Positions 32,300 through 52,383 of a stretch of 64,000 bases of DNA are shown here, piece by piece. The translations under genes and the position numbers were made by a program. The stretch is taken from the NCBI GenBank assembly GCA_964510515.1, contig CAZEAU010000001.1:100503-164502 (forward strand), in the 5' to 3' direction. Below the pieces are notes generated by a model, which had not been told where the DNA came from, did not search any database, and was given only the letters and a program-made list of their open reading frames with translations. Each line of letters begins with the position of its first letter. Within the stretch, counting starts at the first letter, position 1. This DNA is from an uncultured Actinomycetota bacterium. Lineage in GTDB: Bacteria > Actinomycetota > Geothermincolia > Geothermincolales > RBG-13-55-18.

Positions 32300-32364
32300 C
32301 ACCCCGGAAGAGCTGGTGCTATTCTCGAAAACGTTGTTATACCTGCATATACGGGAGATGAAGC

Positions 32365-32754
32365 ATGTATTCGGACAAGGTCATCGAACACTTCCAGAAC
32401 CCGCGCAACGTGGGTGAGATCGCGGACCACGACGGCAAGGGCGAAGCGGGGAGCGAGACCTGCGGGGACATGATGGAGGTATACATCAAGGTCGCCGACG
32501 GGCGCATAGAGGACGTTAAGTACAAGACCTTCGGATGCGGGGCGGCGGTGGCCTCGGGGAGCATGGGCACCGAGATGGCGAAGGGCAAGACCATCGAGGA
32601 GGCCTCGCGCATCACGGACGAGCAGGTGGCGGAGGCCCTGGGCGGCCTGCCGGAGGAAAAACTGCACTGTTCGAACCTGGCCGCCGAGGGCATCAGGGCG
32701 GCCATAGCGGATTACCTCTCCAGAAACGGCGGCGGAGAGGCGGACTTGGGTTAG
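32365..32754 (+). CDS. iscU: Fe-S cluster assembly scaffold IscU/NifU-like
   Basis: HFQNPRNVGEI...GSETCGDMMEV...FGCGAAVAS...LHCSNLA cysteine triad pattern of U-type scaffolds. Confidence 0.88.
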   Translation: MYSDKVIEHFQNPRNVGEIADHDGKGEAGSETCGDMMEVYIKVADGRIEDVKYKTFGCGAAVASGSMGTEMAKGKTIEEASRITDEQVAEALGGLPEEKLHCSNLAAEGIRAAIADYLSRNGGGEADLG

Positions 32755-36057: not shown

Positions 36058-36484
36058 CCTGGGCCTGGACATCGGAGACCGCCGCATCGGGGTCGCCGTC
36101 TCCGACGCGCTCGGGGTCAGCGCCTCCCCCCTGGAGGTGCTGCACGGTCTTGCTCCCCCCCAGCTGCGCGCATACGTCGAGGGCAGGGTCGAGGAGGGCG
36201 TCGGGGTGATCGTGGTGGGGTTGCCGCTGACCCAGGCCGGCCGGGAGGGCGAACAGGCCCGCAAGACAAGGGAGTTCGCGCGTGCCCTGGAGGGTTTGCC
36301 GGGGGTGGAGGTGGTCCTCTGGGACGAGAGGCTGTCCACCGTGGAGGCGACGAGGAGGCTGCGCGAGGCCGGACATGTGGTGAAGGGAAGAAGGGTGGAT
36401 GCGGAGGCGGCGGCGGTGGTCCTCCAGTCCTACCTGGAGTACGGGCAGCGCGGAGACGAAAGCGGGAGACGGGAAGACGCTTGA
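36050..36484 (+). CDS. ruvX: Holliday-junction resolvase-like putative pre-16S rRNA nuclease RuvX/YqgF
   Basis: MRSLGLDIGDRRIGVAVSD N-terminus; overlaps alaS stop by 8 nt. Confidence 0.9.
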   Translation: MRSLGLDIGDRRIGVAVSDALGVSASPLEVLHGLAPPQLRAYVEGRVEEGVGVIVVGLPLTQAGREGEQARKTREFARALEGLPGVEVVLWDERLSTVEATRRLREAGHVVKGRRVDAEAAAVVLQSYLEYGQRGDESGRREDA

Positions 36485-36485
36485 T

Positions 36486-37499
36486 ATGAACCCGGGCGGC
36501 AAAGATCGCAGAAAGTGGATGATCATCGGCATCTTGTGCGGCAGCGTGCTCCTGGTCGTCCTCTTCCTCTCCCTCTTCCTGCACTACTTCTATCCCACGC
36601 GGGGCGATGAGCCCATAGTCGTGGTCATCGAGGAAGGCGATTCCTCGGCCCGCATAGCCGCCAAACTGCACGGCCAGGGAGTGATCACCTCCGCCACCAT
36701 TTTCCGCTTCCTCTCCTGGCTGCAGGGCAAGCAGGGCGACTTCAAACCCGGCAGCTACGTCTTCTACGGGGGGATGCACTTCGGCGAGACCTTCGCCGTG
36801 CTGCAGGCGGGCCCGAATAACTATGTGCGAGTGACGCTGCCCGAAGGGCTGACGGTCGGGCAGACGGCGGCGAGGGTGGCGGAGTCCCTGGCCTTCAGCG
36901 AGGAGGACTTCATGGCCGTGGCCCGTGCCGGCGATTACGCCGTGGACATCATACCCGCGGACAAGCAGGACAACCTCGAGGGATTTCTCTTCCCCAAGAC
37001 CTATGAGTTCCAGGCCGCGGCCCCGCCCCGCGAGGTGGTGACGACGCTCCTGCGCCAGTTCGCTGCGGAGACCGCCAACCTCGATTGGTCGCGGGCGGAA
37101 AGGTTGGGCATCACCCCCCATGGGGCGGTAGTGGCGGCCTCGCTGATCGAAAGGGAGGCGGTGCTGGCGGAGGAGAGGCCACTCATCGCCGCGGTCATAT
37201 TCAACCGCCTGCGTCTGGGCATGCCCCTGCAGATAGACGCCACCGTGCAATACGCCCTTCCGCGGTGGAAGGAAGTGCTCACCTACGAGGACTTGAAGAC
37301 GCCCTCGCCCTACAACACCTACCTGCACAAGGGATTGCCCCCCGCGCCCATCTGCAGCCCGGGGCTCGAGAGCATCAAGGCCGTGTTGGCCCCCGCGGAC
37401 GTCGATTACCTCTACTATGTGGCCACGGGCGACGGGGGCCATTTCTTCACCGCCGACTACGGCGAGTTCCTGAGGGTGAAGGAAGAGGTGCAGAGGTAG
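36486..37499 (+). CDS. mltG: endolytic murein transglycosylase MltG (YceG-like)
   Basis: N-terminal TM, LysM-like region, YceG catalytic domain (NTYLHKGLPPAPICSPGLESIKAVLAP); alaS-ruvX-mltG synteny. Confidence 0.9.
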   Translation: MNPGGKDRRKWMIIGILCGSVLLVVLFLSLFLHYFYPTRGDEPIVVVIEEGDSSARIAAKLHGQGVITSATIFRFLSWLQGKQGDFKPGSYVFYGGMHFGETFAVLQAGPNNYVRVTLPEGLTVGQTAARVAESLAFSEEDFMAVARAGDYAVDIIPADKQDNLEGFLFPKTYEFQAAAPPREVVTTLLRQFAAETANLDWSRAERLGITPHGAVVAASLIEREAVLAEERPLIAAVIFNRLRLGMPLQIDATVQYALPRWKEVLTYEDLKTPSPYNTYLHKGLPPAPICSPGLESIKAVLAPADVDYLYYVATGDGGHFFTADYGEFLRVKEEVQR

Positions 37500-37774
37500 G
37501 CCGCAGCCAGGGCGAGCCGCGCGAAAGAGCGTGGGGCCACGTCTTGCAAGCCCGCGGCAGAACCCCGGGTGCGAACTGGGAAGATATCCGAGAATGTAAA
37601 GATCAAGACTTGACCCCATGCTTTGCCGTGCTATGGCGCGGGCGGGGGGTGTTCATGTTTAATGGGGAAAGGACGAAGTATGAGCAGAAGGCCGCGGATG
37701 CAAGGCGCAGCCCGCCGCGACCCTGCAGGGGCCTGCCGGCGGCGGCGTGGGGCCGAAGGGGAGACCGCGTGGAG

Positions 37775-38263
37775 ATGAGCGAAGGAAGCGAGATACAGGG
37801 GGAACGCCTGCGCGCGCTTGCGGAGGCGTTGGGGATCATGAGCGAAGCCGGAAGGGAGATGACCGGCGATTCCGCCCCGCGGCTGATGTATTTCGCGGGC
37901 AAGGACATGGGATTGAAGGAGGCGGCCGCCTGCGATAACACGGACGACATCGAGCGCGCCCTGAGGTCCGTTTTCCCGGGCAGCGAGGAGGTGTGGAAGG
38001 TAACCCTCTGGAAGAACATGGAGGATGACGACTTCTGGGTGTACGAGCCGGAGGGGATGTTCATACGCCTCCTCTTCGAGCGATGCCCGGTGCGCGATGC
38101 CTGCCTCTCGGCGGGAGTCAGCCTGGACGGGGTCGCATGTCAGGCGGTGCACGGTTACGCCGCCGGCATGCTGGAGAGCATATTCGAACGCAGGGTGGAC
38201 TTGCGCACGGAGCACTCGGGCCCCGGAGCCTGCCTGGTGATGCTGATGACGACCCTGGAGTGA
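37775..38263 (+). CDS. V4R (vinyl-4-reductase) domain protein; alternative longer start at 37655
   Basis: C-terminal ...FERCPVRDACLSAGVSLDGVACQAVHGYAAGMLESIF resembles the V4R CxxxC...C hydrocarbon/ligand-binding domain; stop 4 nt before the hydrogenase-like small subunit. Confidence 0.5.
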   Translation: MSEGSEIQGERLRALAEALGIMSEAGREMTGDSAPRLMYFAGKDMGLKEAAACDNTDDIERALRSVFPGSEEVWKVTLWKNMEDDDFWVYEPEGMFIRLLFERCPVRDACLSAGVSLDGVACQAVHGYAAGMLESIFERRVDLRTEHSGPGACLVMLMTTLE

Positions 38264-38266
38264 GCG

Positions 38267-39169
38267 ATGCGGATAGCGATAACGTCTCTGAGTTCATGCC
38301 TGGGGTGCCAGCTGGTTTTTCTCAGCCTGGAGGATTTTCTCCTGGCGATGATAGGCGAGAACAGCGTGCTCTACGCCCCGCTTCTCGTGGACGCCAAGGA
38401 GCTCCCCGAGGCGGACCTCATCCTGGTCGAGGGGGCGGTGCGGAACGGAGACGATTATCGGCGGGCGAGGGAGGCGCGGGAGAGGGCGGGAAACCTTGTC
38501 GCCCTGGGCACCTGCGCCTGTTACGGGGGCGTGCAGGGAATGGCGAACATGGTTTCGGAACAGAGGCTGATGCGGGGCCGCTTCGGCGCGGAAGCTCGTT
38601 TCGAGGGGGAGCCCCCGGGCACGGGGCGCCTGCTGCCGCTGGACGCTTGCGTCAAGGTGGACGCCTACCTCCCCGGCTGCCCGCCTCCGCTCGGGCTCCT
38701 GAGGTCCTTCCTCGACCTCGCCCTCTCGGCTGATTCCCCCTCGCGCAGGGCCTCCAGCGTATGCGCCGAGTGCGCGGTTTCCGGGGCATCCCTGCCCCAG
38801 CCGGGCCCGCGCCGGACCGTTGAGGCGGCGGGGGAGGCGGGCAAGTGCCTGCTGGAGCAGGGTTTTCTTTGCATGGGCCCGCTGACCAGGGACGGATGCG
38901 GCGCCTTGTGCGTGAACGAGCTCGGCATACCTTGTCACGGCTGCAGGGGCCCGAGCGACGCGGTGCTTGCCGGCGGGGCCGCCGACCCCTGTGCGGAAAC
39001 GCTGCGCCGCCTGGCGAGGGCGACGGGAAGGAAGCGGGGGGATTTGCGGGAGGAGGTCGCAGACCCCGCCCACACCTTTTACAAGTTCTGCCTGGCGGAG
39101 CCGCTTCTGCGCCGCCGCAGGCCCGGGGGCACGGCGCCTTTTCTCCATCGCCTGGGGAGGAAGGGATGA
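38267..39169 (+). CDS. [NiFe]-hydrogenase small-subunit-like Fe-S protein (FrhG/MvhG/NuoB-type, three predicted clusters)
   Basis: Proximal-cluster ligand pattern SSCLGCQ...GTCACYGG...YLPGCPP (NuoB/oxidored_q6 type) plus 8 more Cys in the C-terminal half (CAECAVSG...CLLEQGFLCMGPLTRDGCGALCVNELGIPCHGCRGP). Confidence 0.7.
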   Translation: MRIAITSLSSCLGCQLVFLSLEDFLLAMIGENSVLYAPLLVDAKELPEADLILVEGAVRNGDDYRRAREARERAGNLVALGTCACYGGVQGMANMVSEQRLMRGRFGAEARFEGEPPGTGRLLPLDACVKVDAYLPGCPPPLGLLRSFLDLALSADSPSRRASSVCAECAVSGASLPQPGPRRTVEAAGEAGKCLLEQGFLCMGPLTRDGCGALCVNELGIPCHGCRGPSDAVLAGGAADPCAETLRRLARATGRKRGDLREEVADPAHTFYKFCLAEPLLRRRRPGGTAPFLHRLGRKG

Positions 39170-39208
39170 GCATGGGCGGCACGATGATGAGACGGAGCTG
39201 CTGACGGC

Positions 39209-40528
39209 ATGGCGGAGATAGTCATCGCGCCGCTGACCCGCATCCATGGAAACGCGGCCGTGAGGGTTGTCCTGGACGAGGCCGGAGTGCCGCGTGAGGC
39301 CCACTTCCAGGCATTCGGCTATCGCGGCTTCGACCATATCGCGAGGGGCGCCCACATCGACAACCTGTGCTCGCTGGTTTCGCGCATCTGCGGGGGCGAT
39401 TCCCTCTTTCACCAGCTGGCAGCGGCCATGGCGGTGGAGAACGCGCTGGCGGTGGAGGTCCCCGAGGAAGCGAAGAGGCTGCGGGAGGCGGCCTTGTGGG
39501 GACAGCTCTTCGAGCGCCATGCCGTCTCCCTCACCGTGCACAGCCTGCCGGACCTGCTCTTTCCTTCATCGCACCCCGGCCTGCGCAACATCGTCAGCAT
39601 GCACCGCGTGGACGAGGAGATAGTGAAAAGGTTCATGGCGCTGAAGTCCCTGGGGACCAGGGTGGTGGAGGAGATCGGGGGCAGGGCGGTGCACCCGCTG
39701 AACTTCATGCCCGGCGGTGCGGCCAGGGACATCGATGCGGGGCGCAGGGAGGACTTGACGGCGCGGCTCAAACAGGCCATGCCCCCGCTCATAGAGACGG
39801 GACGCCTGGTCAAGCTGCTGCTGCGCAGGAACGAGGAAGCCGTCCACTCCCTGGGCGGGGAGGCGGCGCCTTGCCTTGCCCTGCGGGGAGAGAGGGGGGT
39901 GGCGGTGAGCGCGCCCCTGCTGGCGGTCACGGGCGCCGCCGGGAAAGACGTGGACTCGGTCGGGCCGGATGAGGCGGCGGGGAGGCTGGTGGAGAGCAAT
40001 TCCGCCCACTCCCACATCAGGAGGGTCGAGATCTCCGGGCTGGGCCGGGTCAGGGTGGGGCCGCTGGCGAGGCTCAACGTCAACCGCCGCTACGGGACCC
40101 CCCGCGCGGACGAAGAGCTGGAGGAGGTCAAGGCCCACTGGGGCTTCCCGCTTCACCGCAACATGACCTCGCACGCGGCGAGGATCCTGGAGATGATCCA
40201 TGCCTGCGAGAGGATGGTCGAACTCCTCGCATTTCCCGCCGCGAAGAGGACGCGGGAGACGCTTTCCCCCGGCGCCGGAAGCGGCGTGGCGGCGCTGGAG
40301 ACGCCGGAGGGGACGCTCGTCTACGCCGTTGCCCTGGACGACGCGGGGATGGTCAAGCGGCTGGCCATAACCTCTCCGCTTCAGTTCAACCTCTGGGCTC
40401 TGGAGAAAGCGGTGCTGGAGAGCGCGCGCAACGTCCCGGGGGGGGCGCAGGCGGGTGAGGGGGTGAGCGTCCTGCTGGAGACGGCGGTGCGCGCCTTCGC
40501 GCCCTGCGTTCCATGCGGGGTGCAGTGA
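39209..40528 (+). CDS. [NiFe]-hydrogenase large-subunit homologue with divergent metal-ligand motifs
   Basis: N-terminus IAPLTRIHGNAAVRV (in place of TRIEGH); L1 motif is SRICGGDSLFH (second Cys of RxCGxCxxxH replaced by Asp); C-terminus is FAPCVPCGVQ-stop (CxxC retained, Asp to Ala, no terminal His, no C-terminal extension); 439 aa. Confidence 0.65.
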   Translation: MAEIVIAPLTRIHGNAAVRVVLDEAGVPREAHFQAFGYRGFDHIARGAHIDNLCSLVSRICGGDSLFHQLAAAMAVENALAVEVPEEAKRLREAALWGQLFERHAVSLTVHSLPDLLFPSSHPGLRNIVSMHRVDEEIVKRFMALKSLGTRVVEEIGGRAVHPLNFMPGGAARDIDAGRREDLTARLKQAMPPLIETGRLVKLLLRRNEEAVHSLGGEAAPCLALRGERGVAVSAPLLAVTGAAGKDVDSVGPDEAAGRLVESNSAHSHIRRVEISGLGRVRVGPLARLNVNRRYGTPRADEELEEVKAHWGFPLHRNMTSHAARILEMIHACERMVELLAFPAAKRTRETLSPGAGSGVAALETPEGTLVYAVALDDAGMVKRLAITSPLQFNLWALEKAVLESARNVPGGAQAGEGVSVLLETAVRAFAPCVPCGVQ

Positions 40529-40561
40529 GCGGACGCGGGGAGGATAAGGAGAGATGACGGC

Positions 40562-40861
40562 GTGGAGGGCGCGAAGAGCATGAGCGCGGAGCAGGCACTG
40601 ATAGAGATCGACCGCGTGAGGTGCGTCGGATGCTTTGAATGCATCGATGTCTGCCCTCAGGTGGCCGACCTCGAGTTCCCGGTATTCGAGCCGGGACGCG
40701 ACGGCTTTCCCAAGGTGGTCAACGAGGGCAGCTGCATACGCTGCCTGAGCTGCGAGTACGCCTGCCGCGCGGAGGCGATAAGGGTCGGGGGCGGAAGCCG
40801 CGCCGACCGTCCCGGCAGGCTGGAGGCAGGGGCGGAGCGGAAATGCCGCTCCACGTTCTGA
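40562..40861 (+). CDS. 2x[4Fe-4S] ferredoxin
   Basis: Two CxxCxxCxxxCP motifs (CVGCFECIDVCP; CIRCLSCEYAC); GTG start after AGGATAAGGAGAG. Confidence 0.75.
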   Translation: MEGAKSMSAEQALIEIDRVRCVGCFECIDVCPQVADLEFPVFEPGRDGFPKVVNEGSCIRCLSCEYACRAEAIRVGGGSRADRPGRLEAGAERKCRSTF

Positions 40862-40973
40862 GCGCGCCGGGCCGCTGCCCGCCCGGGGTGCCGGGGGCGC
40901 GACCGGCGGCCGCGGCGCAGGCGGGTGAGGGGGTTCCGGTCAAGAATAACGGCGAAATGACGATACCTATCCA

Positions 40974-41002
40974 TTGGAGCCATGATTTAACTTTAGTATA
41001 AT
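40974..41002 (+). promoter_or_regulatory. candidate sigma70 promoter (TTGGAG-17 nt-TATAAT) for the Roadblock-PATAN-GTPase operon
   Basis: Consensus -10 TATAAT in an AT-rich island inside the 285-nt gap between the ferredoxin and the first Roadblock gene. Confidence 0.35.
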
Positions 41003-41145
41003 CATGCAACAGAATTAACGGATTAAAACCGCGATAAGGTAATGTCGATAGTAGTTGTGAGGACCGGGCACGGAATTGCCGGAAGGCCTGAGCGAGAAAA
41101 AAGGGGGAAAGGCCTCTTTCTCCCCGGGGCAGGAGGTGGTATGGA

Positions 41146-41499
41146 TTGCCCGATTTGAGAAAAGCCCTTGAGGAACTGGTCGCCACCGGGACCGTGCGTG
41201 CCGCCCTGGTGGTGGGGAGGGACGGCTTCATCATCGAGACGGCGGGAGAAGATGCGGCCCAACTCGAGGCCGTCGGCGCCATCGCGCCCAGCTCCCTGGG
41301 CGCCGCCGAGGTCATAGGCCTGGAGTTGGCGCAGGGCCCCATGGCCCAGGCGATGTTCGAGTTCGAGAAGGGCGCGATACTCATGAGCGCGGTGAGCGTG
41401 GATGCCATCCTCGTCTCCATCCTTCCCACGAGCGCGAACCTGGGCAAGGCGAGATACGAGATCCGCAAATATCTCCCCGCGATAGAGGCGTCCCTGTGA
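41146..41499 (+). CDS. Roadblock/LC7 (MglB/CvnB-like) domain protein 1
   Basis: 117 aa; TTG start after AGGAGG; LVVGRDGFIIETAGED...AAEVIGLELAQG...GAILMSAVSVDAILVSIL pattern of the Roadblock/LC7 fold. Confidence 0.75.
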   Translation: MPDLRKALEELVATGTVRAALVVGRDGFIIETAGEDAAQLEAVGAIAPSSLGAAEVIGLELAQGPMAQAMFEFEKGAILMSAVSVDAILVSILPTSANLGKARYEIRKYLPAIEASL

Positions 41500-41557
41500 G
41501 CACGACGGACAGCCCTCTTCGTCTGGGGAGGCGTCCCGCATTGTCTCTGGAGGTCAG

Positions 41558-41941
41558 ATGGTTTCGGAAAGAATAGAGAGGATGAACGCCGCCCTCAGGG
41601 ATCTGCGCTCGGGGATGCAGGAGATCGAGGCGGCCGTCCTCATCAGCGCGGACGCCATGGCCCTGGCTTCGGATATCTCCGACGAGGCCGACGAGGAGAT
41701 GATCGGCGCGCTTTCCGCCTCGGTGCTCGGCATGGGCGAGCGGGCGGCGCGCGACCTGAGGAGGGGTGAGCTCGAGCAGGTGTATATAAAGGGGGACCAG
41801 GGCTACCTTCTGCTCCTGCAATGCGGGCCCGATGCCCTTCTCTCCCTTCTGGTCAGGCCGGAAGCGAAGCTGGGCGTGGTCTTCATGGAGGGAAAACGGA
41901 CCGCCGAGGAGCTGGCAAGGCTTTTCGAGCGGGAGATTTGA
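41558..41941 (+). CDS. Roadblock/LC7 domain protein 2
   Basis: 127 aa; same architecture (AAVLISADAMALASDI...YIKGDQGYLLLLQCGPDALLSLLV). Confidence 0.75.
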   Translation: MVSERIERMNAALRDLRSGMQEIEAAVLISADAMALASDISDEADEEMIGALSASVLGMGERAARDLRRGELEQVYIKGDQGYLLLLQCGPDALLSLLVRPEAKLGVVFMEGKRTAEELARLFEREI

Positions 41942-41973
41942 CGCGACTGCTATTCGTATGGGAGGTCGATCGC

Positions 41974-42372
41974 TTGGCGGGTTCTAGGGAGGAGAGACTC
42001 AGGAGCGCTCTCAACGAACTGGTTTCGAGGTCCGCCGAAGTGGATGCGGCGGCCGTGGTGAGCATGGACGGCCTGGTCATGGCCTCGGTTCTTCCCAATA
42101 CCCTCGAGGAGGACAGGCTGGGGGCCATGTCGGCCGCGCTGCTCAGCCTCGGAGAGAGGACCTCCGAGGAGCTGGGCAGGGGAGAGCTCGCGCAGGTTTT
42201 CGTGGAGGGCAACGCGGGATACGTCTTCCTCATGGCCGCCGGGGAAGACGCGGTCCTGACCGCGCTGGTGCGCAAGGGGAGCAAGCTGGGCCTGGTCCTC
42301 TACGACGTCAAGGGGGCGGCTAAAAGGATAGCGGAGATCATAAAAGCGGAATTCCGCATCGAATACGATTGA
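41974..42372 (+). CDS. Roadblock/LC7 domain protein 3 (TTG start inferred; ORF track shows a longer frame from 41821)
   Basis: AAVVSMDGLVMASVLPN...VFVEGNAGYVFLMAAGEDAVLTALV; GGGAGG RBS 8 nt before the TTG at 41974. Confidence 0.65.
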   Translation: MAGSREERLRSALNELVSRSAEVDAAAVVSMDGLVMASVLPNTLEEDRLGAMSAALLSLGERTSEELGRGELAQVFVEGNAGYVFLMAAGEDAVLTALVRKGSKLGLVLYDVKGAAKRIAEIIKAEFRIEYD

Positions 42373-42468
42373 GGCGTTCCCCGGCGCGGAGCGCACGCGG
42401 GAGCGGGCGGCAGCGAAGAGTGGCAAGCCGGCTGGGATGAACGGCGCCAGGACGAGAGATGGTGTTGC

Positions 42469-45400
42469 ATGGCTTTGAAAGGTAGCTTGAAGGACTTCAG
42501 CATCCCCGACCTCTTCCAGTTGTTGAACTTCGGGAAGAAGAACGGGACGCTCAACCTCACGCGGGGACAGGCAAGAGGGTACATATGTTTCCGCAATGGC
42601 GAGGTCTTCTTCGCCACTACCAACTGGAAGAGGCAATCGCTTGGCCTCAAGCTGCTCAACGCCGGGATAGTGAGCAAGGCCCAGATCGACGAGGCGTTGC
42701 AGCTCCAGAGGACCTCGGCACGGGGGCAGCGCCTGGGGCAGCTGCTCATCCGCGAGGGCCATATCACCATGTCCCAGCTGGAAGTCTTTATAGAGGAACA
42801 AATACAGGATGCGGTTTTCGAGATGCTGCGCTGGACGGACGGCGACTTCGATTTCCAGCCGGGCGCAGTCTTCCCGGAAGAGGATATCGGCCTCTCCATA
42901 AGCACCGAGGAACTGATCATGGAGGGATCGAGGCGCCTGGACGAGTGGAACCGCATCGAGAAGAAGATCCCCAGCCTGGAGGCCGTGTTCAGGATGACAT
43001 CCATGCACGGAAGGGAGGCGGCGCAGATAAGCCTCACTCCCGAGGAGTGGATGGTCCTCACCCACGTGGACGGCGATAAGGACGTCAGGCAGATAGTCGA
43101 ACTCACCGGCATGAGCACTCTGCATGCCTGCAAGATACTCTACGGTCTCCTGGGGGCAGGGTTGCTGGAGAGTGTCGCCCCCGTCCAGGACGAGAAGGAG
43201 GCCGACCTCAGGCTGGGGAGGCTGGCGGAGGAATTGGAAAGAGCGGAGGAGGGGGCTGGAGAGCCGCCCGCCCCGGGCGAGGTCCCGGAGCTGGAGCCAG
43301 AACAGCTCGAGGTGCTCGCTCACGGGGGAGGCGCGGTGGCGGAAACGAAGGAGTCTGTGCCCCCCGCGACCACGGGAGAGGAATGGGAGGTAGCGGACGC
43401 CCTGGGCGAGGTGTTCGAAAGGCTGGAGGTGGCCGCGCAGGAGGATGTGCTCACGGCGGCTGACAGGGACGAGGCGGCGGAGCCCCACACTGCGGCGCCC
43501 GATGCGGAGGAAGCCGGGGCGCTCGCAATCGAGATAGGGGCCGAGGCGGGGGAGGAGATACTCGTCGAGGAGATCGTCTTTTCTCCGCCCGACGCGGGCC
43601 CCATTGAGGTGGAGGAAGCGGATGAGGCGGTGAGGGAGAGCGCGGCCGGCCTGCCTCCTGCCGGGGGGCCGGCCGAGGCGGGGATGCCGACCGCCGTGCC
43701 CTGGCTCCCGGGCTCGCGGCGCATCCTGGAGGAGGAGAAGCGGAAAGAGGAAGAGTATATCCGCAGGATGAAGGAAGCTGCCCTGGAGGACTCGGTGGAG
43801 TCGCAGGAGACGCTCAGGATCGACCGCAAGGAGGCCGAGCTGGAGGAGCTGAAAAAGAAGATCAGCTCTCTTCTCCCCGAGGGCATGGGGTTGGACGAGG
43901 TTGAGGAGGAGCCGCGCGAGGAGGCGCCGCAGCGGGCGCTCGACGAGAGCGCACAGAAGATCACGGGGGAGAGCGTTGAGGCCCGGGAAGCCAAGAGGGA
44001 GTACCTGGAGAAGAAATTCGGAAAAGCGGAGAAGCTTGCCGGGGAGGGCGAGATCGCGGGATCCGAACCCGAGGAGATCCCCGAGGAGTGGAAAAGCCAC
44101 CTGGAGAAGAGCGCGCCGAGGGAGCAAGGGGCCGACCTTTACGGGGCTCCGGCCGGGCGAGAAGGCGTGGGCATCGACTTGGAGAAGATCCTGGGCGGCG
44201 CCTTCCGGGGAGCGGCGGTCGCGGAGGGGGAAGGGGCGGAGCCGCAGGGGTTCACCGCCGCATGGGAGCCGCTGGAGGCCCCGAGGCAACCCGAGTGGAG
44301 CGGGGATGCTCCCGGTGGCGAGCACGCCGCGGCAGGAATCCTGGCGGAAGCGTGGGAGAGGCCCGCCGGGGGCGACGAAACCCTCGAGGACGCCATGATG
44401 ACCCCCGCCCTGGAGAGCATAATGCTCGAGGACCTGCCCGAGGGCACGGCCGCAGGCGTTGCCCCTATGGATGCCGCCGCGCTTCCAGCGGAGGCGGAGG
44501 AGGGAGCGGGAGAGCCGCCCATGGCGGCACCCCGGGATGCCTTGACCGAGCCCCCGGCGATGTCCATGCTCGAGAGGGCCATGCTGGAGGACATCTCCGC
44601 GGCCGAGACGCCGCTGCCGGGGGAGGACGTTTTTGCGCCGCAAGCGCAGCCGGAGGCGCTGTCGTCGGCCTCGCAGGAAACATTTTTCGAGATTGACGAG
44701 GACGTGCGGGCGGGCGTGGGGGGCGCGGCGGAAGCCCCACTGGAGGAGTCGTTCGCCGGGGAGCCGCATGAACTGCAGGTGGAGGCGGCGGGTGAGGGCC
44801 TCGAGTCACCGGGCTGCGTGGACTTCGCGGACGAGATAGCCGCCCTGGAAAAGGAGATGCTCGCCGAGCACGCCCTGCCGCATGAACTGAAGATGGAGGT
44901 GCCGCGGGAGGCGATGCCGCCCCAGACGATATTGCGCGGCGATGTGCCGCCCTCCCTGGAGGAACTGGACAAAGTGATCACCGCAGGCGAGGAGGAGACG
45001 CTGCCGGCAACCGAACCGGATGTGGCATCGCATGATGCATGGGGGAGGATGGCCGAGGAGGTGCGCGAAACGGGTTGGCCGCAAGGCGAGACCGATGCGC
45101 CTGCCCCTTACCGCCTTCTGGAGGAGCTGGCGGAGGCGGCCCCCGAGGACATATACATACCGCCGCCGCCTTTCGAGAGCGCCGAGCCCACCTATGCGCC
45201 GCCCATGCAGCAGATGCCGGAGCTAGAGATAAGCGAGCCGGAGTATGCGCCGCCGCCCATGCAGCAGATGCCGGAGCTCGAGGTGAGCGAGCCGGAGTAT
45301 GCGCCGCCCATGCAGCAGATGCCGGAGCTCGAGATGCCCGAGCCCATAGAGCGGCTGGAAGCGCTGGCGGAGGCCTCGGAGGTATCCCCCGAGGAGGCGT

Positions 45401-46020
45401 ATGTGCCGCCGCTGCTTCTGGAGAGCGCCGAGCCCACATATGCTGAGCCGGCGCAAGCGATGCCGGAGCTCGAGGCAAGCGAGCCGGAGTATGCGCCGCC
45501 ACCCATGCAGCAGATGCCGGAGCTCGAGATGCCCGAGCCCATAGAGCGGCTGGAAGCGCTGGCGGAGGCCTCGGAGGTATCCCCCGAGGAGGCGTATGTG
45601 CCGCCGCTGCTTCTGGAGAGCGCCGAGCCCACATATGCTGAGCCGGCGCAAGCGATGCCGGAGTTCGAGGTGAGCGAGCCGGAGTATGCGCCGCCGCCCC
45701 AAGGCCGCGAGACCGCGCCGGCCGCGGCCCCCACCGTGCCCCGCGAGGAAGGAGCGGGCGGGTATGCGGAGGAAGAGGGCTACGGCGAGGATCACGAATT
45801 TGATATGGGCAATTATTCCCTGGAGAGGGAGCTTGCGGAGCTCACCGGGGCCTCGATGCCGCAGCCGACAAAGAAAATAAAGATCCCGCTGAAGCCGAAA
45901 GGAGAAGACGGCGATGTGGAGGAAATAGATAAGGGCAAGCCGCTCCCGAAGGTTAAGCGGGATAAGGCGGTGACGAAGAGCATAATCATGCGCATCATTG
46001 ACGGCATCAAAAGACTGTAA
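42469..46020 (+). CDS. PATAN/DUF4388-domain protein with about 850-aa acidic Glu/Pro/Ala-rich low-complexity tail containing tandem repeats
   Basis: N-terminal about 110 aa ([49 protein letters not shown]) match DUF4388/PATAN; remainder E-rich with repeated EYAPP(P)MQQMPELE and two 65-aa near-identical units. Confidence 0.7.
45331..45720 (+). repeat. in-frame tandem direct repeat, 2 x 195 nt (about 95% identical over the first 170 nt), preceded by three 51-54-nt sub-repeats (about 45180-45340)
   Basis: gagatgcccgagcccatagagcggctggaagcgctggcggaggcctcggaggtatcccccgaggaggcgtatgtgccgccgctgcttctggagagcgccgagcccacatatgctgagccggcgcaagcgatgccggag occurs at 45331 and again at 45526. Confidence 0.85.
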
Positions 46021-46023
46021 GGG

Positions 46024-46566
46024 GTGGGTGCTCAATTGCGATCCTTCAAAATCGTAGTCACCGGGCCGTTCAGCGCGGGCAAGACGACCTTCATCAAGAG
46101 CGTGAGCGAGATATCCATCGTCTCCACGGAGAGGTCGATATCCGATTCCACGCGGCGCGTGAAAGCCGAGACGACGGTGGCCATGGACTTCGGCAGGATC
46201 ACCATCTCCAAAGACATCGTGCTCTATCTTTTCGGGACGCCGGGCCAGGAACGTTTCGATTTCATGTGGCAGATCCTTTCCGAAGGCATGCTGGGCTACA
46301 TCCTGATGCTCGACGCGAGCCGCCCGGAGACCTACGAGGAGGGAAAGCGCATACTGGAGTTTTTCGCAACTCTCTCGGAGGCGCCTTTCGTCGTCGGGGT
46401 GACCCGCATCGGGAGCGAGGGCGATGCCGCCGCGGTGGAGAGGATAAGGCAGGATATGAGCGTTGATGGAGATGTCCAGATCATACCCTGCGATACCAGA
46501 CAGAAAGAGGACGTGAAGAGAGTCCTCCTCAGCCTGCTCTACGACATACTCAAGACCCTCGACTGA
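46024..46566 (+). CDS. small Ras-like GTPase of the MglA/CvnD (conservon subunit D) family
   Basis: P-loop GPFSAGKTTF, TTVAMDFGRI switch I region, LFGTPGQERF switch II (DxxGQ); 180 aa; start 4 nt after the PATAN gene stop. Confidence 0.8.
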   Translation: MGAQLRSFKIVVTGPFSAGKTTFIKSVSEISIVSTERSISDSTRRVKAETTVAMDFGRITISKDIVLYLFGTPGQERFDFMWQILSEGMLGYILMLDASRPETYEEGKRILEFFATLSEAPFVVGVTRIGSEGDAAAVERIRQDMSVDGDVQIIPCDTRQKEDVKRVLLSLLYDILKTLD

Positions 46567-46641
46567 TCGGGCCCTCGCCCGGGATAGGCTGGCGCGGCAT
46601 GAGGCGCCGGGGGTAATGGCATGGGGGGACGCGGGGGGCAT

Positions 46642-47502
46642 ATGAGGATCAACGGCGAAACCCGACTGGTAGGCATCATCGGCCACGAGATCGGCTACAC
46701 CATGTCACCGGCGATGCACAATGCCGCGTTCGACGCACTGGGCATGAACTGGGCCTACGTCCCCCTGCGCGTCCCCCCGCAGCAGTTGCAGCCCGCCCTG
46801 CACGGTCTGCGCGCCTGCGGCTTCAGGGGATTCAACGTGACTATCCCCCACAAGGTGGAGAGCGTGCGTTATCTGGATGAGACCAGGGGGCCGTCTGCCT
46901 TGCTTGGGGCGGTCAACACCGTGGTCAACGAGGGGGGAAGGCTGCTCGGCTACAATACCGACGTCGAGGGCTTTCGCTCCTTCCTGGCTGAGGCCGGCGT
47001 GCCCGCGGGCGGCTCATGCGCGCTGCTCTTGGGCGCGGGCGGCGCGGCGCGCGCCGTCGCGCTCGCGCTGGCGCAGGCGGGAGCCGGGCGCATCTACGTC
47101 ATCAATCGCACGCCGCAGCGTGCGCAGGAGCTGGCGGCCCTGTTAAAGAGGGCGGCGCCGGGGACCGAGATATCTGTAAGGACGTACGACAGCGTGGGCT
47201 CGCTGGTCCTGCGGGAATGTGACCTGGCGATCAACTGTATCCCCGCCGCCGGCTCTGGGGGGGTGGCCCTGCCCCTGGACTACGAGGCTTTTGGCGAGGG
47301 GAAGTGGGCGATAGACATCGGGTATGCGGGGGCGGGGTCGGCATTCCTGAGGGAAGCCGCCGCTCGGGGGGCGAAGACGGCCGACGGCGCGGGCATGCTC
47401 GTCCACCAGGCCGCCGCCTCCTTTCGCCTGTGGACGGGAAGGCCGGCCCCGCTGGGCGAGATGAAGAGCGCCTGCCTCGGCGAGCCGGCCGGAGAAGGAT
47501 AA
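46642..47502 (+). CDS. aroE: shikimate dehydrogenase AroE
   Basis: LVGIIGHEIGYTMSPAMHNAAF...GFNVTIPHK...GYNTDVEGF...LLGAGGAARAV Rossmann motif. Confidence 0.92.
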   Translation: MRINGETRLVGIIGHEIGYTMSPAMHNAAFDALGMNWAYVPLRVPPQQLQPALHGLRACGFRGFNVTIPHKVESVRYLDETRGPSALLGAVNTVVNEGGRLLGYNTDVEGFRSFLAEAGVPAGGSCALLLGAGGAARAVALALAQAGAGRIYVINRTPQRAQELAALLKRAAPGTEISVRTYDSVGSLVLRECDLAINCIPAAGSGGVALPLDYEAFGEGKWAIDIGYAGAGSAFLREAAARGAKTADGAGMLVHQAAASFRLWTGRPAPLGEMKSACLGEPAGEG

Positions 47503-47521
47503 CGGCAAGAGGATAAGCGGT

Positions 47522-49189
47522 ATGCAGAAACCGAAGAAAGAAAAGCTGGGACAGATACTCATCAGGAACCGCATCATCGATGAAGAGCAGCTCCGGCAGG
47601 CCTTGGAGCGGCAGGCGGAGACGGGCGAATCGTTGGGCAGGGTTCTCATCGAATTGAAGATGGTGAGCGAGGGCGCCCTGACCTCCGTGCTCGCCCGCCA
47701 GATAGGGTTGAAATTCGCCGACCTCGGAACCTTCGACGTTGACATCTCCGCCTGCTCCCTGGTGAGCGCGGAGGTAGCCAGGCGCTACACCCTCATCCCG
47801 GTGGGCTTCAACGGGGACCGCCTGATGGTGGCCATGGCCGACCCCACCAACGTCTTCGCCCTGGACGACGTCCGTATCATGACCGGGATGCAGGTCGAGC
47901 CGCTCGTGGCCACCAAGGAGGATATCGTCGCCGCCATCAACCGCTACTGCCGCTCGGATACGGACATGGACATAACCACGGAAGATTTGGTGGAGGGCGA
48001 GGTGGAGGAGGACGTCGAAGCGGTTGTCGATGACGCTCCCATAGTGAAGTACGTGAACCTGCTCATCTCCGAGGCGGTCAACGACCGCGCCGCGGACGTG
48101 CACATAGAGCCCATGGAGCATGACGTGAGGGTGCGCTTCCGCATCGACGGGGTGCTGCACGAGATACGCAGGAATCCCAGGCAGATCCACCCCGGCGTGG
48201 TGGCCAGGATAAAGGTCATGGCGGACATGAACATAGCGGAGAAGCGCCTGCCCCAGGACGGCAGGGCTTCGGTGGACATCAGGGGCAAACAGATCGACCT
48301 GCGCGTGGCCTCGCTTCCCACCATACACGGCGAAAAGGTGGTGCTGCGCGTCCTCGACAAGAGCGCATCGCTGATGAGCCTGCAGGACCTGGGTTTCAGC
48401 GAGGACATCCTGGAGGTGTATTCGCGCAGCTTCCACAAGCCCTACGGCACCATCCTGGTCACCGGCCCCACCGGCAGCGGCAAGACCACCACCCTCTACG
48501 CCACCCTCAACGTGCTCAACAGCATCAAGCAGAACATCATCACCGTGGAGGACCCGGTGGAGTATCGCCTGCCCCTCATCAATCAGGTGCAGGTGCATTA
48601 CAAGGCCGGCCTGACCTTCAGCGCCGCGCTGCGCTCCATCCTGAGATGCGACCCCGATATCGTCATGATCGGCGAGATCCGCGACCCGGAATCAGCCCAG
48701 ATAGCCATCGAGTCGGCGCTTACCGGGCATCTCGTCCTCTCAACCCTGCATACCAACGACGCCCCCAGCGCGCTGACCCGCCTGCTGGAGATGGGCATAG
48801 AGCCTTTCCTCATCGCATCGGCGGTGGACTGCGTGAGCTCGCAGAGGCTGGCGCGAAAGCTGTGCGAGCGCTGCAAGGAGGCCTATGAGCCCGACCCGGA
48901 ATACCTGGAGAAGGTCAGGTTCAGCTGGGAAAACGGGCAGGAAAGAGTCCTTTACCGGCCCAGAGGCTGCCCCGCCTGCAACAACACCGGCTACAAGGGA
49001 AGGGTGGGCGTTTACGAGGTGCTGGAGGTTACGGAGGATATAGAACGCCTGGTGGCCAAGAACGCCCCCCACGTCGAGATCGCCGCGGCGGCGCGCGCGG
49101 AGGGGATGAGGACCATGCGTGAAGAGGGCTTCGTCAAGGTCAGGGAGGGCATGACTTACATCGACGAGGTCTTGAGGGTCATCATGTGA
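47522..49189 (+). CDS. pilB: type IV pilus assembly (extension) ATPase PilB/GspE family
   Basis: N-terminal GSPII domain, Walker A GPTGSGKTT, Asp/His boxes, C-terminal tetracysteine CPAC...zinc motif. Confidence 0.92.
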   Translation: MQKPKKEKLGQILIRNRIIDEEQLRQALERQAETGESLGRVLIELKMVSEGALTSVLARQIGLKFADLGTFDVDISACSLVSAEVARRYTLIPVGFNGDRLMVAMADPTNVFALDDVRIMTGMQVEPLVATKEDIVAAINRYCRSDTDMDITTEDLVEGEVEEDVEAVVDDAPIVKYVNLLISEAVNDRAADVHIEPMEHDVRVRFRIDGVLHEIRRNPRQIHPGVVARIKVMADMNIAEKRLPQDGRASVDIRGKQIDLRVASLPTIHGEKVVLRVLDKSASLMSLQDLGFSEDILEVYSRSFHKPYGTILVTGPTGSGKTTTLYATLNVLNSIKQNIITVEDPVEYRLPLINQVQVHYKAGLTFSAALRSILRCDPDIVMIGEIRDPESAQIAIESALTGHLVLSTLHTNDAPSALTRLLEMGIEPFLIASAVDCVSSQRLARKLCERCKEAYEPDPEYLEKVRFSWENGQERVLYRPRGCPACNNTGYKGRVGVYEVLEVTEDIERLVAKNAPHVEIAAAARAEGMRTMREEGFVKVREGMTYIDEVLRVIM

Positions 49190-49408
49190 GGGGTCATCAT
49201 CTGAGCGCGCCCGCATATTGGGGTGAAAGAATCGGCGTCCGCGGCCGATATCAAGATGGGACGGGCAGGCAGGCGGCCGCGCAGCACAACCTGGGAACAT
49301 GGAGCGGGGCGGGTGGGAGGAGCGCTCTTCCCCACACGGCCCAAGGGTACGGCCCGAGCACACGGCCCGAGCGCACGGTACGGGAGGAACGGGAGAGGAG
49401 GAAGGGCT

Positions 49409-50473
49409 TTGACCAAGCTTGATATCAATGAGCTTCTGGAAGAGGTGCTGGTGAGGGGGGCCTCCGACCTGCACCTCACCGTCGGGACCCCGCCGGTCAT
49501 GCGCATCAACGGCACCCTTATGCGCCTGGAGGAATATCCTCGCCTTACATCCAACGATACCCGCGACATGGTCTACAGCATACTCGCCGCGAGGCAGAGG
49601 GAGCAGTTGGAGAGCAACCTCGAATACGATCTCTCCTACTCGGTGCCCGGAAGCGCGCGTTTCCGCGTCAACGCCTATTTTCAGAGGAACAGCATCGGGG
49701 CGGCCTTCCGCATCATCCCCTATCGCATCAAGTCGGTGGAGGAGCTGCAGCTCCCCCAGGTCATCCACGAGTTCTGCATGCTGCCGCGCGGCTTCGTCCT
49801 CGTCACCGGGCCGACCGGTCAGGGCAAGTCCACCTCGCTCGCGGCCATGATCAACATCATCAACGAGACCCGCAACCTGCATATCATCACCGTCGAGGAC
49901 CCCATTGAGTTCCTGCACGTGCACAAGAGTTGCATCGTGAACCAGAGGGAGGTGGGGGGGGACACGCATTCCTTTTCCAATGCTCTCAAGTACGTCCTGC
50001 GCCAGGATCCGGACGTCATCCTGGTGGGCGAGATGAGGGACCTGGAGACCATCTCCACCGCGCTCACCGCGGCGGAGACCGGGCACCTGGTGTTCGCGAC
50101 CCTGCATACCCAGGACGCTCCGCAGACCATAGACCGCATCATCGACGTCTTTCCCACCTATCAGCAGCAGCAGGTGCGTATGCAGCTGGCCAGCACCATA
50201 CAGGCCATTGTCACCCAACAGCTCCTGCCCACTAAGGACGGGCAGTCCCGCATACCGGCGGTGGAGGTGATGGTGGCGACCTCGGCCATCCGCAACCTCA
50301 TCCGCGAGGCCAAGGCGCACCAGATATATTCCTCCATGCAGGCGGGAGGGCAGTACAAGATGCAGACCATGGACCACTCCATCGCGGCGCTCTTCAAGCG
50401 CGGGCTGGTCTCCTACGAGGTGGCCATGGCGAGGTGCAGCAACCGCGAGGAGATGGAGCGGCTGATCGGCTGA
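49409..50473 (+). CDS. pilT: type IV pilus retraction ATPase PilT (TTG start after GGAGAGGAGGAAGGG)
   Basis: LEEVLVRGASDLHLTVGTPPVMRINGTL, Walker A GPTGQGKST, AIRNLIRE motif. Confidence 0.92.
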   Translation: MTKLDINELLEEVLVRGASDLHLTVGTPPVMRINGTLMRLEEYPRLTSNDTRDMVYSILAARQREQLESNLEYDLSYSVPGSARFRVNAYFQRNSIGAAFRIIPYRIKSVEELQLPQVIHEFCMLPRGFVLVTGPTGQGKSTSLAAMINIINETRNLHIITVEDPIEFLHVHKSCIVNQREVGGDTHSFSNALKYVLRQDPDVILVGEMRDLETISTALTAAETGHLVFATLHTQDAPQTIDRIIDVFPTYQQQQVRMQLASTIQAIVTQQLLPTKDGQSRIPAVEVMVATSAIRNLIREAKAHQIYSSMQAGGQYKMQTMDHSIAALFKRGLVSYEVAMARCSNREEMERLIG

Positions 50474-50540
50474 CGGCGGCATGTCCGCCGCGGGAGGTCC
50501 CCGTTCGCCGGGGAAGGTGATCGGCGGGGCGTGCTAGAAT

Positions 50541-50549
50541 CTCTTTGAA
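50541..50549 (+). promoter_or_regulatory. candidate extended -10 promoter element (TGcTAGAAT) upstream of pilC
   Basis: Read directly in the pilT-pilC gap. Confidence 0.2.
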
Positions 50550-50715
50550 AGGAAAGCTTCGCCGGGGGTAAAGAAATGGGGCGCCGGGAACGATACTAAT
50601 TGCGGTCGGTTGACGGCGGCGGCGGTGCGGAGATAGAAGCGGCCCGGATGCGCGCGAGATGACGGCGAAAGGATGTCCTCAAGCGTTCGGAAGCGCCGAG
50701 AAAAGGAGAGAGGCG

Positions 50716-51939: not shown

Positions 51940-52008
51940 CGAGCGACCTTGCCGGCGGGCCCGCGGCGGGGGAAGGTTTCGGACGAAGGTTGTTGAAAGA
52001 GTATATTA

Positions 52009-52361: not shown

Positions 52362-52383
52362 GGCCTGGAGCGGGGGGTATGGC

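Follow-up and report, generated by a model that had tools for sequence, protein, structure and literature searches.

Nine genes separate mltG from aroE in a 64,000-nucleotide (nt) stretch of DNA from an uncultured Actinomycetota bacterium (GenBank assembly GCA_964510515.1, contig CAZEAU010000001.1, positions 100,503 to 164,502), hereafter called the window and used for all positions given below. Open reading frame listing and scans with Pfam and NCBIfam found all nine on the + strand. They encode a V4R-like protein, small and large subunits resembling those of [NiFe]-hydrogenases (HydS and HydL), a ferredoxin (Fdx), three Roadblock/LC7 proteins (Robl1, Robl2 and Robl3), a protein with a PATAN domain and a small Ras-superfamily GTPase, and a type IV pilus cluster begins beyond aroE. 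The question raised by this locus is whether these genes form one system. An initial annotation described them as a single 9-kb island in which the hydrogenase-like pair might act as sensor input of the GTPase. The explanation that we favour, with a probability of roughly 0.45 and thus short of even odds, is that of two ancient modules that are functionally connected: a hydrogenase-like module partnered by the V4R-like protein and linked with Roadblocks (Module A, 37775-40861), and a switch of the pilus motor (Module B, 41146-46566).

Outgroup tiers for this comparison were obtained from GTPase relatives (58-61% identity) and from a metagenome scan with a PATAN alignment. Tier 1 (36 loci) had the arrangement of the window, and every locus of this type that was long enough displayed alaS-ruvX-mltG-V4R-hydS-hydL-fdx-Robl1-Robl2-Robl3-PATAN-GTPase-aroE-pilB-pilT in the same order; taken by itself, this order carries no information, since the housekeeping neighbours are equally syntenic. 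Tier 2 (23 loci, with alaS about 50% identical) showed mltG-V4R-hydS-hydL-fdx-Robl2-Robl3-PATAN-GTPase-aroE-pilB, and its hydrogenase-module proteins were 29-37% identical to those of the window. The arrangement found in tier 3, which includes Coriobacteriia, and in loci L021 and L023 was mltG-aroE-(pilB')-Robl3-PATAN-GTPase-x-pilB, devoid of the V4R, hydS, hydL and fdx genes (hereafter hyd genes). When the count was limited to loci covering the whole stretch from mltG to PATAN, hyd genes were present in 23 of 23 from tier 1, in 8 of 12 from tier 2 and in none of the 18 from tier 3, L021 and L023. A neighbour-joining (NJ) tree of Robl3, PATAN and GTPase united tiers 1 and 2 in one clade and placed the lineages lacking hyd genes outside. 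On the evidence of these gene orders, the Robl3-PATAN-GTPase triad is ancestral at this locus and tied to pilB. The additions comprise only V4R, hydS, hydL, fdx, Robl1 and Robl2, with a single origin coinciding with the position of aroE after the GTPase gene.

Acquisition of all nine genes together, as one conservon-like island between mltG and aroE in which the hydrogenase-like pair replaces the CvnA kinase, is most improbable in this light. Tiers 1 and 2 do hold nine (or eight) genes between mltG and aroE, and the presence of hyd genes does coincide with aroE following the GTPase gene. However, a single nine-gene insertion is ruled out by outgroup synteny: orthologous Robl3-PATAN-GTPase triads lie at the same locus beside pilB in clades without hyd genes, on the other side of aroE, which there stands between mltG and Robl3. 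Retaining the island would need paralogy of the outgroup triads, against which the NJ tree argues. Likewise, no island signature was found in base composition, the GC content being 0.61-0.70 within the region and outside alike. Direct succession of mltG and aroE in other Actinomycetota, as stated in the initial annotation, was seen in L021, L023 and 16 tier-3 loci. Comparison with relatives did not bear out a joint gain or loss of the nine genes, of which only six are clade-specific, and each half has promoter-like elements of its own. As for the conservon-like nature of the locus, the CvnB/CvnD part of the definition is present, as three Robl_LC7 proteins and an ATP_bind_1-type GTPase, but the nine proteins gave no Pfam match to CvnA kinase (HisKA/HATPase) or to CvnC/DUF742. 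Moreover, the three nearest GTPase relatives whose context was checked (58-61% identity; L018/L019, L021 and L023) were pilus-linked Robl-PATAN-GTPase triads rather than conservons. A Pfam scan of positions 37500 to 47500 did not detect any kinase gene.

The link of the switch with type IV pili, which had also been suspected, was strongly supported. In 44 of 57 loci, no more than 2.5 kb separates the GTPase gene from pilB (47522-49189, +; Pfam T2SSE 470 bits, MshEN 81 bits) on its downstream side; of the other 13, the majority appear cut by contig ends, judging by appearance and not locus by locus. The triad is located directly upstream of pilB in all four lineages seen (tier 1, tier 2, tier 3 and L021/L023). 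In tier 3 (L068-L105 and L018), of Coriobacteriia type, a second PilB-like paralogue was observed directly upstream of Robl3, so that the triad is there flanked by two PilB genes. Evolutionary rates were gauged by amino-acid identities because synonymous sites probably reach saturation over such distances. Within tier 1, the median identity to the window was 96% for Robl3, 90% for Robl1, 89% for pilT, 86% for PATAN_N, 83% for both GTPase and Robl2, 82% for pilB, 70% for alaS, 67% for V4R, 61% for hydS, 55% for hydL and 51% for fdx. The GTPase module is therefore as slow-evolving as pilB and pilT, by these identities.

The GTPase (46024-46566, +, 180 amino acids (aa)) scored 60 bits with Pfam ATP_bind_1 and 26 bits with Ras, and is of the ATP_bind_1/CvnD-like type, with GPFSAGKT at G1 and GTPGQ at G3. 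Its similarity to Thermus MglA (25 bits) was no better than its similarity to Rab12 (25 bits). The guanine-specificity motif NKxD is replaced (TRIG here, TRAD in L064), so that nucleotide specificity is uncertain. The gene starts 3 nt past the stop codon of the PATAN gene (42469-46020, +, 1183 aa), whose product carries a PATAN domain at aa 4-161 (Pfam DUF4388, PF14332, 126.6 bits versus a gathering score of 25). Inside the helical insert of this domain, at aa 58-111 (42640-42801), an MshEN-type motif for cyclic diguanylate (c-di-GMP) was identified by model NF053729 (40.5 bits versus a cutoff of 38). The same model scored 43-60 bits across tiers 1-3, over cutoff in all three clades; the motif was kept even in lineages with a dead GTPase and was degenerate in L021 and L023. 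The MshEN motif has been described as tandem copies of 24 residues each, RLGxx(L/V/I)(L/V/I)xxG(L/V/I)(L/V/I)xxxxLxxxLxxQ (PMC5013675). In the PATAN protein the first copy starts with S rather than R, and the spacer has 7 residues rather than 5. As PilB itself has an N-terminal MshEN domain (NF053729, 63 bits, 47522-47700), c-di-GMP could act on both the motor PilB and its presumed regulator PATAN.

The PATAN domain is followed by a long acidic Pro/Glu-rich linker of roughly 900 aa with tandem repeats at 45193-45695. At the DNA level, these repeats have a period of 195 nt (2.2 copies, 96% match) and a period of 54 nt (2.9 copies), and linker length varied from ~120 to 1230 aa between lineages. 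The C-terminal ~14 residues (~45976-46017) form a presumably helical motif that is conserved in all clades (loci L003-L085) and has an alternative form, RSLLMKIIEGIEKL. L064 has this motif in truncated form and L066 in degenerate form, the very loci in which the GTPase gene is frameshifted or deleted. Since it decays where the GTPase is dead, it may be a GTPase-binding element.

Module A opens with the V4R-like gene (37775-38263, +, 162 aa). The label 'V4R' given initially to its product holds at the level of fold and not by sequence: searches of Pfam (E<=10), NCBIfam and PDB profiles gave no match, and PF02830 was found only below threshold in relatives (17.6 bits for L020 and 13.2 bits for L014, versus a cutoff of 31). 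An AlphaFold (AF2) model built from 25 homologues had a mean predicted local distance difference test score (pLDDT) of 86 and a predicted template-modelling score (pTM) of 0.83. Foldseek assigned it to the V4R sensor domains of PoxR, MopR and DmpR (E about 2e-5) and also to TRAPPC3/Bet3 and MJ1460 (2oso), with a template-modelling score (TM) of about 0.57; the COG-based name given by JGI to homologues of this 162-aa protein concurs. Residues C104, C110, C122, C153, H126 and H147 are conserved. In Thor-TRAPPC3, zinc is held by four cysteines, and the zinc site of PoxR is similar (PMC10933270); the four conserved cysteines of the V4R-like protein probably form a structural zinc site, and a ligand cavity is probably present as well. 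The family is tiny, with 53 clusters retrieved by profile search among 1.84 billion (1.84e9) representative proteins.

The gene for HydS (38267-39169, +, 300 aa) starts 3 nt past the V4R-like stop codon and is followed by those for HydL (39209-40528, +, 439 aa) and for a 2x[4Fe-4S] ferredoxin (40562-40861, +, 99 aa; several Fer4 Pfam models, the gene caller favouring a start at 40580). The position of fdx after hydL was constant in all related clusters. HydS matched Pfam Oxidored_q6 (81 bits) and NCBIfam VhuG (174.1 versus a cutoff of 450), HydL matched NCBIfam VhuA (198.6 versus 800), and the best PDB matches of HydL were 9sfi_g, 7t2r_D and MvhA 5odc_F. Both subunits are thus best matched by group 3 enzymes (VhuA/VhuG, MvhA 5odc, HoxH 5xf9), far under the family cutoffs. 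Equivalogs of VhuA/VhuG or Hox (groups 3c/3d) were excluded on these scores, and a group 2b regulatory hydrogenase (HoxBC-HoxJ) was excluded by the group 3 best matches and by the lack of an adjacent HoxJ-type kinase. The hydL family was restricted to metagenome-assembled genomes of Actinomycetota, including Ca. Solincola and Ca. Geothermincola, at 44-100% identity, with a gap thereafter to ~32%. As a single negative control, the nearest hydrogenase outgroup without V4R (P0116/L024) had neither Roadblock nor GTPase neighbours.

The two subunits have fared differently. Twelve cysteines of HydS, conserved across 18 aligned loci, fit three [4Fe-4S] clusters (proximal, medial and distal); no Tat (twin-arginine translocation) signal was found in HydS, and its C-terminal tail is basic and conserved. 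HydL has TRIHGN at L0 instead of the canonical RIEGH (R-x-E-G-H), so the proton-relay Glu and the neighbouring His of the motif are gone; at the Glu position, tier 1 varies and tier 2 mostly has Gln. At L1, RICGGDSLFH stands for RxCGxCxxxH, with Asp in place of the second, bridging Cys. This Asp is fixed throughout the Solincola-type subclade, whereas CxxC is kept by basal relatives (L014, of Geothermincola, L020, L022, L042 and L044) and by tier 2; HydL of all these keeps the four cysteines, yet always without the L0 Glu. At L2, APCVPCGVQ replaces DPCxxCxxH: CxxC is kept, Asp has become Ala and the terminal His has become Gln. A C-terminal extension is lacking. Judging from these motifs, the Fe-S electron-transfer chain is intact and the catalytic site of HydL non-canonical, with further degeneration in this genome.

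Evidence for a hydrogenase-Roadblock association came from outside the Actinomycetota. Genomic context was available for five distant members of the V4R-like family. Roadblock genes were found in four of them, which range in GC content from 0.38 to 0.66 and vary in arrangement:
V4R-HydS-HydL-Fdx::V4R-Roadblock-OmpA-coiled-coil protein (LAMTOR5-like C-terminus)-HycI in L106; Roadblock-Roadblock-V4R-HydS-HydL-Fdx-V4R2-HycI-STAND ATPases in L110/L111; Roadblock-Roadblock-V4R-HydS-HydL-Fdx-V4R2-HycI together with a divergent histidine kinase and a receiver (REC)-PATAN-Roadblock regulator in L112/L113; and V4R-V4R-HydS-HydL-Fdx-x-Roadblock, adjoining Mvh-Hdr, in L114 (GC 0.38). The fifth, L108/L109, has V4R-HydS-HydL-Fdx and no Roadblock. 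From general knowledge of Roadblock frequency, we estimate that four of five independent contexts are far more than expected by chance, the domain being so rare. HydL of L106, L108, L110, L112 and L114 is canonical, with RIEGH, CxxC and DPCxxCxxH plus the extension, and L106, L110 and L112 encode the protease HycI, which is missing in the window clade. Missing there too is a second V4R/ATC_hydrolase-like protein, which follows the ferredoxin in L110 (12135-12587) and L112 (12148-12606), is fused to it in L106 (3422-4141) and lies upstream of the first V4R gene in L114 (8422-8958). No association of a hydrogenase with Roadblock, MglB or V4R was found in the open-access literature searched, and the literature found on hydrogenases of Geothermincolia likewise held nothing on Roadblocks; type IV pili and hydrogenases of Solincola have been reported (PMC12917137).

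Within the Actinomycetota, the distribution of the Roadblock paralogues pointed in the same direction. Robl3 (41998-42372, alternative start 41938, +, 124 aa; Pfam Robl_LC7 64.6 bits) had orthologues with 54-70% identity in every clade sampled and is the universal partner of PATAN and GTPase. Robl2 (41558-41941, +, 127 aa, 55.4 bits) was confined to tiers 1 and 2, the clades bearing hyd genes, with 41% identity for the tier-2 orthologue. Robl1 (41146-41499, +, 117 aa, 42.6 bits) is restricted to tier 1, a Geothermincolia-type clade. It scored 23.8 bits with the NCBIfam MglB model (cutoff 200) and gave no BLASTP alignment with Robl2. Its closest relatives among the Roadblocks compared were those linked with the hydrogenase of L112 (RoblA/B, 37-42% identity), versus 25-32% for the others and 30% for its own Robl3. 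The restriction of the extra paralogues to hyd-bearing clades suggests a link between hydrogenase and Roadblock.

Four loci with scars of the hyd genes (L056, L064, L065 and L066) amount to natural knock-outs. L064/L065 have lost the hyd genes, with a scar at 8524-8969 that keeps remnants of the hydL C-terminus and of fdx; Robl2 and the GTPase gene are frameshifted and PATAN lacks its C-terminal motif, with alaS, aroE, pilB, pilT and pilC intact. The GTPase gene of L066 is gone entirely. This joint decay of hyd genes, Robl2 and GTPase in L064-L066 suggests that the modules may be coupled.

Possible promoters were found for each module. A GTTCATGTTTAAT element (37651-37663, +), preceded ~12 nt upstream by TGGC (TGGC-N12-GTTCATGTTTAAT), lies ~110 nt 5' of the V4R-like gene. 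It was kept in nearly all related loci, in a mltG-V4R spacer that is otherwise unalignable, and is probably the promoter of the hydrogenase module, with a candidate -10 element at 37658-37663. The intergenic gap between fdx and Robl1 (40861-41146), of variable length in relatives (180-513 bp), contains an AT-rich promoter-like block (40956-41050, +) conserved across tier-1 loci, in a genome of 65% GC. The block comprises a AATGACGATA box (40956-40965), a -35 element TTGGAG (40974-40979), a 17-nt spacer, a consensus -10 element TATAAT (40997-41002) and a AATGTCGATA box (41041-41050); its tier-2 analogue has CATAATATAG and a conserved CCGATA box. The promoter scan overlooked it because the -35 element matches the consensus at 3 of 6 positions. 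The motif ATGWCGATA occurs three times in the window versus 0.32 expected, two copies flanking this Robl promoter, and could be the operator of some regulator. Co-regulation of both modules by these boxes was ruled out, as they are confined to the Robl promoter and one intragenic pilB site. Between fdx and Robl1, the promoter/terminator scan did not detect any terminator on the + strand, and a minus-strand 'terminator' (41104-41125) was regarded as chance. A search of Rfam (E<=1, 36000-53000) returned nothing, hence no riboswitch, such as one of c-di-GMP type, in either gap, and folding of the Robl1 leader (z = +0.45) gave no sign of structured RNA.

The same data bear on a narrower explanation, namely a genuine hydrogenase-Roadblock link that ends with the hydrogenase: the Roadblocks would be subunits of it, for instance for regulation, assembly or localisation, and would convey no signal to GTPase or pili, Robl1 and Robl2 belonging to Module A and only Robl3 to the GTPase. 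The distant clusters without a detectable Ras-like GTPase, the role of Robl3 alone as universal GTPase partner and the resemblance of Robl1 to the L112 Roadblocks would all fit. However, in this clade the internal promoter precedes Robl1 and Robl2, which are apparently transcribed with Robl3-PATAN-GTPase and not with the hyd genes, and they evolve as slowly as the GTPase module; in L064-L066, decay has struck the GTPase along with hyd genes and Robl2, and the L112 cluster is paired with a REC-PATAN-Roadblock regulator. We consider this explanation quite unlikely.

The main rival is a substantial one, even if we hold it to be somewhat unlikely: the modules would have nothing in common but their place in a stable stretch of chromosome. 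GTPase, PATAN and Roadblocks would control pili with c-di-GMP as input, V4R-HydSL-Fdx would be a cytoplasmic ferredoxin-linked redox enzyme of metabolic function, or a relic, and their adjacency would be inherited. Several observations speak for it and weigh against a functional connection. Adjacency in tiers 1 and 2 goes back to one origin of the hyd genes followed by vertical descent, according to the NJ tree, and by itself it says nothing, alaS, ruvX, mltG and aroE being just as syntenic. The modules have separate conserved promoter-like elements with the ATGWCGATA boxes unshared, and unlike evolutionary rates, the hyd genes changing much faster (hydL 55%, fdx 51%) than the GTPase module. 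The latter stands alone in tier 3, L021 and L023, at least three lineages in which it is conserved (0 of 18 loci with hyd genes), so the hyd genes are not required. After clean deletion of V4R, hydS and hydL, with a scar (2760-2870) fusing the V4R N-terminus to the last 10 hydL codons, the tier-2 locus L056 has kept fdx, Robl2, Robl3 and PATAN intact. The c-di-GMP motifs of PATAN and PilB would be a sufficient input. Two further points weigh against the connection. The outside contexts sampled were only five, the chance level of Roadblock adjacency being an estimate from general knowledge, and a tblastn search with the window GTPase as query found no Ras-like GTPase near the distant hydrogenase-Roadblock clusters. 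Also, HydL of this genome, which lacks Glu and His at L0, the bridging Cys at L1 and the terminal His at L2, may bind no NiFe centre at all.

Unrelated neighbours, on the other hand, leave unexplained the Roadblocks in four of the five distant V4R-HydSL-Fdx clusters, one of them with a PATAN regulator, the extra Roadblock paralogues that track the presence of hyd genes, and the joint decay in L064-L066. The notion of a hydrogenase-like sensor input consequently stood in part. The recurrence of Roadblocks beside distant V4R-HydSL-Fdx clusters, with a REC-PATAN regulator in one, goes unexpectedly against the refuting condition of the initial annotation (two sub-clusters that never co-localise elsewhere) and favours it. 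The GTPase module working without hyd genes in other lineages, the loss of canonical HydL residues and the existence of a second candidate input, c-di-GMP through the PATAN insert, do not.

A functional connection between the two modules could operate as follows. Module B would regulate the type IV pilus motor through the GTPase, the Roadblocks and the PATAN scaffold, the Roadblocks acting as partners of the GTPase of GAP (GTPase-activating protein) or GEF (guanine nucleotide exchange factor) type. The N-terminal PATAN domain would carry the MshEN-type c-di-GMP site, and the C-terminal motif would be the part that belongs to the GTPase. If MglA/MglB and the PATAN-PilB1 binding of Synechocystis are taken as models, PilB, itself an MshEN protein and probably the target of the switch, would be gated or positioned by PATAN and the GTPase in its GTP-bound form. 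Module A would be a soluble V4R-HydS-HydL-ferredoxin complex derived from group 3 [NiFe]-hydrogenases, acting as a sensor related to redox or H2 rather than as a metabolic hydrogenase, with a full Fe-S relay and a degenerate catalytic site; the loss of catalytic hallmarks by HydL fits a sensory or regulatory role. Robl1 and Robl2, which were found in no clade without Module A, would pass the state of Module A on to Module B. In the picture with most support, the pilus-motor switch of one actinobacterial clade recruited a hydrogenase module, linked with Roadblocks and partnered by V4R, which then lost catalytic hallmarks. From the observed gene content, motifs, phyletic patterns and recurrence of hydrogenase-Roadblock clusters, we infer the coupling, the direction of signalling, all physical interactions in this scheme and what is sensed, be it H2, redox state or a V4R ligand.

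If the coupling is true, it would represent a third mode of hydrogenase sensor, after the kinase-linked and cyclase-linked types, provide a concrete upstream partner for the widespread and mostly orphan prokaryotic Roadblock proteins, and offer uncultured H2-dependent acetogenic Actinomycetota a route to steer pilus motility. A bolder proposition, which we regard as doubtful, takes V4R-HydS-HydL-Fdx for an unrecognised class of sensory [NiFe]-hydrogenases whose readout of H2 or redox state goes through Roadblock/LC7 proteins instead of kinases or cyclases. In Geothermincolia-type Actinomycetota, it would be wired through Robl1 and Robl2 into a c-di-GMP-binding PATAN/GTPase switch acting on PilB, resulting in twitching guided by H2 or redox ('hydrogenotaxis') in acetogens, and the set of V4R, Roadblock and GTPase would be a prokaryotic functional analogue of regulators of the TRAPP/Ragulator type. 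Such a combination is relevant to the origin of TRAPP/Ragulator-like GTPase regulators. Regardless of the hydrogenase question, Robl3, PATAN with its c-di-GMP motif and the GTPase make up a conserved actinobacterial pilus regulator beside pilB, found in >90 loci from four lineages, and no description of it was found in the literature searched. The individual components are already in the literature (MglA families, PATAN-PilB1, the MshEN motif, V4R/TRAPPC3 and Solincola pili). The lasting value of the locus lies in this regulator and in the recurrent V4R-HydSL-Fdx-Roadblock cluster.

The surroundings of the nine genes are of housekeeping nature. The wider window holds the array queA-tgt-secDF-relA-hisS-aspS-ispH-...-mgsA-nifU-DUF948-alaS, with alaS at 33406-36057, ruvX between alaS and mltG, and mltG at 36399-37499, these three on the + strand. 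A gene for a NifU-N/IscU-like Fe-S scaffold (32362-32754) lies shortly before DUF948-alaS; this is probably a housekeeping gene without relation to the system, of note only since the hydrogenase module is rich in Fe-S. On the other side, aroE (shikimate dehydrogenase by Pfam, 46621-47502, +) is a flanking gene outside the system. Its first ATG is at 46621 (46642 in the initial annotation), which leaves it wedged between the GTPase gene, at 54 nt, and pilB, at 19 nt. Downstream of pilB follow pilT, pilC, pilM and pilO, the last two in a pilMNO cluster; the Pfam matches of these pilus genes, pilB included, were T2SSE, MshEN, T2SSF, PilM_2 and PilO. Pilus and shikimate genes are interleaved at 46621-58506 (aroE, pilBTC-pilMNO, aroC at 55611-56840 and aroB at 57037-58506), the pilus cluster thus sitting within a conserved actinobacterial alaS...aro supercluster. 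Minor pilins were found after aroB, at 59022-59738 and from 62515 to the end.

Among known systems, Module A is closest to the cytosolic [NiFe]-hydrogenases of group 3 (Mvh/Vhu of type 3c and Hox of type 3d), with which it shares the best matches, the three-cluster small subunit and the cytosolic location. It departs from them in scores (199 versus 800 and 174 versus 450), in the loss of the L0 Glu and His, in the change of L2 Asp to Ala and in the lack, in the window clade, of a C-terminal extension and of HycI. Replacement of the bridging Cys by Asp and of the terminal His by Gln is confined to the subclade. Its partners are the V4R-like protein and the ferredoxin instead of MvhD/Hdr or a diaphorase. 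The H2-sensing regulatory [NiFe]-hydrogenases comprise group 2b (HoxBC-HoxJ) and the putative group 2c, linked with diguanylate cyclases, in a classification that reportedly goes back to Greening et al. in 2016. They offer the same concept, a heterodimer of low turnover used as a sensor coupled to a signalling protein, its large subunit also without the C-terminal extension. The pair described here differs by its likeness to group 3, by having no adjacent kinase or diguanylate cyclase and by its proposed partner, a Roadblock/LC7 protein.

For Module B, the MglA/MglB system of Myxococcus xanthus and Thermus thermophilus (with RomR/RomX and MglC) likewise combines a Ras-superfamily GTPase and Roadblocks with type IV pilus output. 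The present GTPase is distant from MglA (25 bits to the Thermus protein), with GTPGQ at G3 and no NKxD. The locus also stands apart by the hydrogenase-like module upstream, by its three paralogous Roadblocks and by a giant PATAN/c-di-GMP scaffold, whose gene is in translational coupling with that of the GTPase. Prokaryotic MglA families have been surveyed, and PATAN genes occasionally occur near MglA genes of groups 1 and 5 (PMC4316618). The conservon of Streptomyces and Mycobacterium (CvnA-CvnB-CvnC-CvnD) shares an actinobacterial ATP_bind_1-type GTPase with Roadblock (PMC4316618) but differs from the present locus, which lacks CvnA and CvnC/DUF742 and has the PATAN scaffold and the pilus link. 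PATAN-REC proteins of Synechocystis (PixG, PixE and PilG family) bind PilB1, according to PMC9090330 (citing Han 2022 and Jakob 2020), and the likeness to them lies in a PATAN protein encoded beside PilB, its presumed target. In contrast with these, the PATAN protein described here has no receiver domain, an MshEN-type motif in its helical insert, a ~900-aa acidic linker, a C-terminal motif and a GTPase partner instead of a phosphorelay. Finally, the V4R/Bet3 fold, Roadblock-fold proteins and a GTPase are found at one locus as in eukaryotic and Asgard regulators of the TRAPP and Ragulator type, and the four-Cys site of the V4R-like protein resembles those of PoxR and Thor-TRAPPC3 (PMC10933270). 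The likeness lies only at the level of fold (TM about 0.57), and the present locus differs in that the V4R gene is tightly coupled to hydS and not to the GTPase gene.

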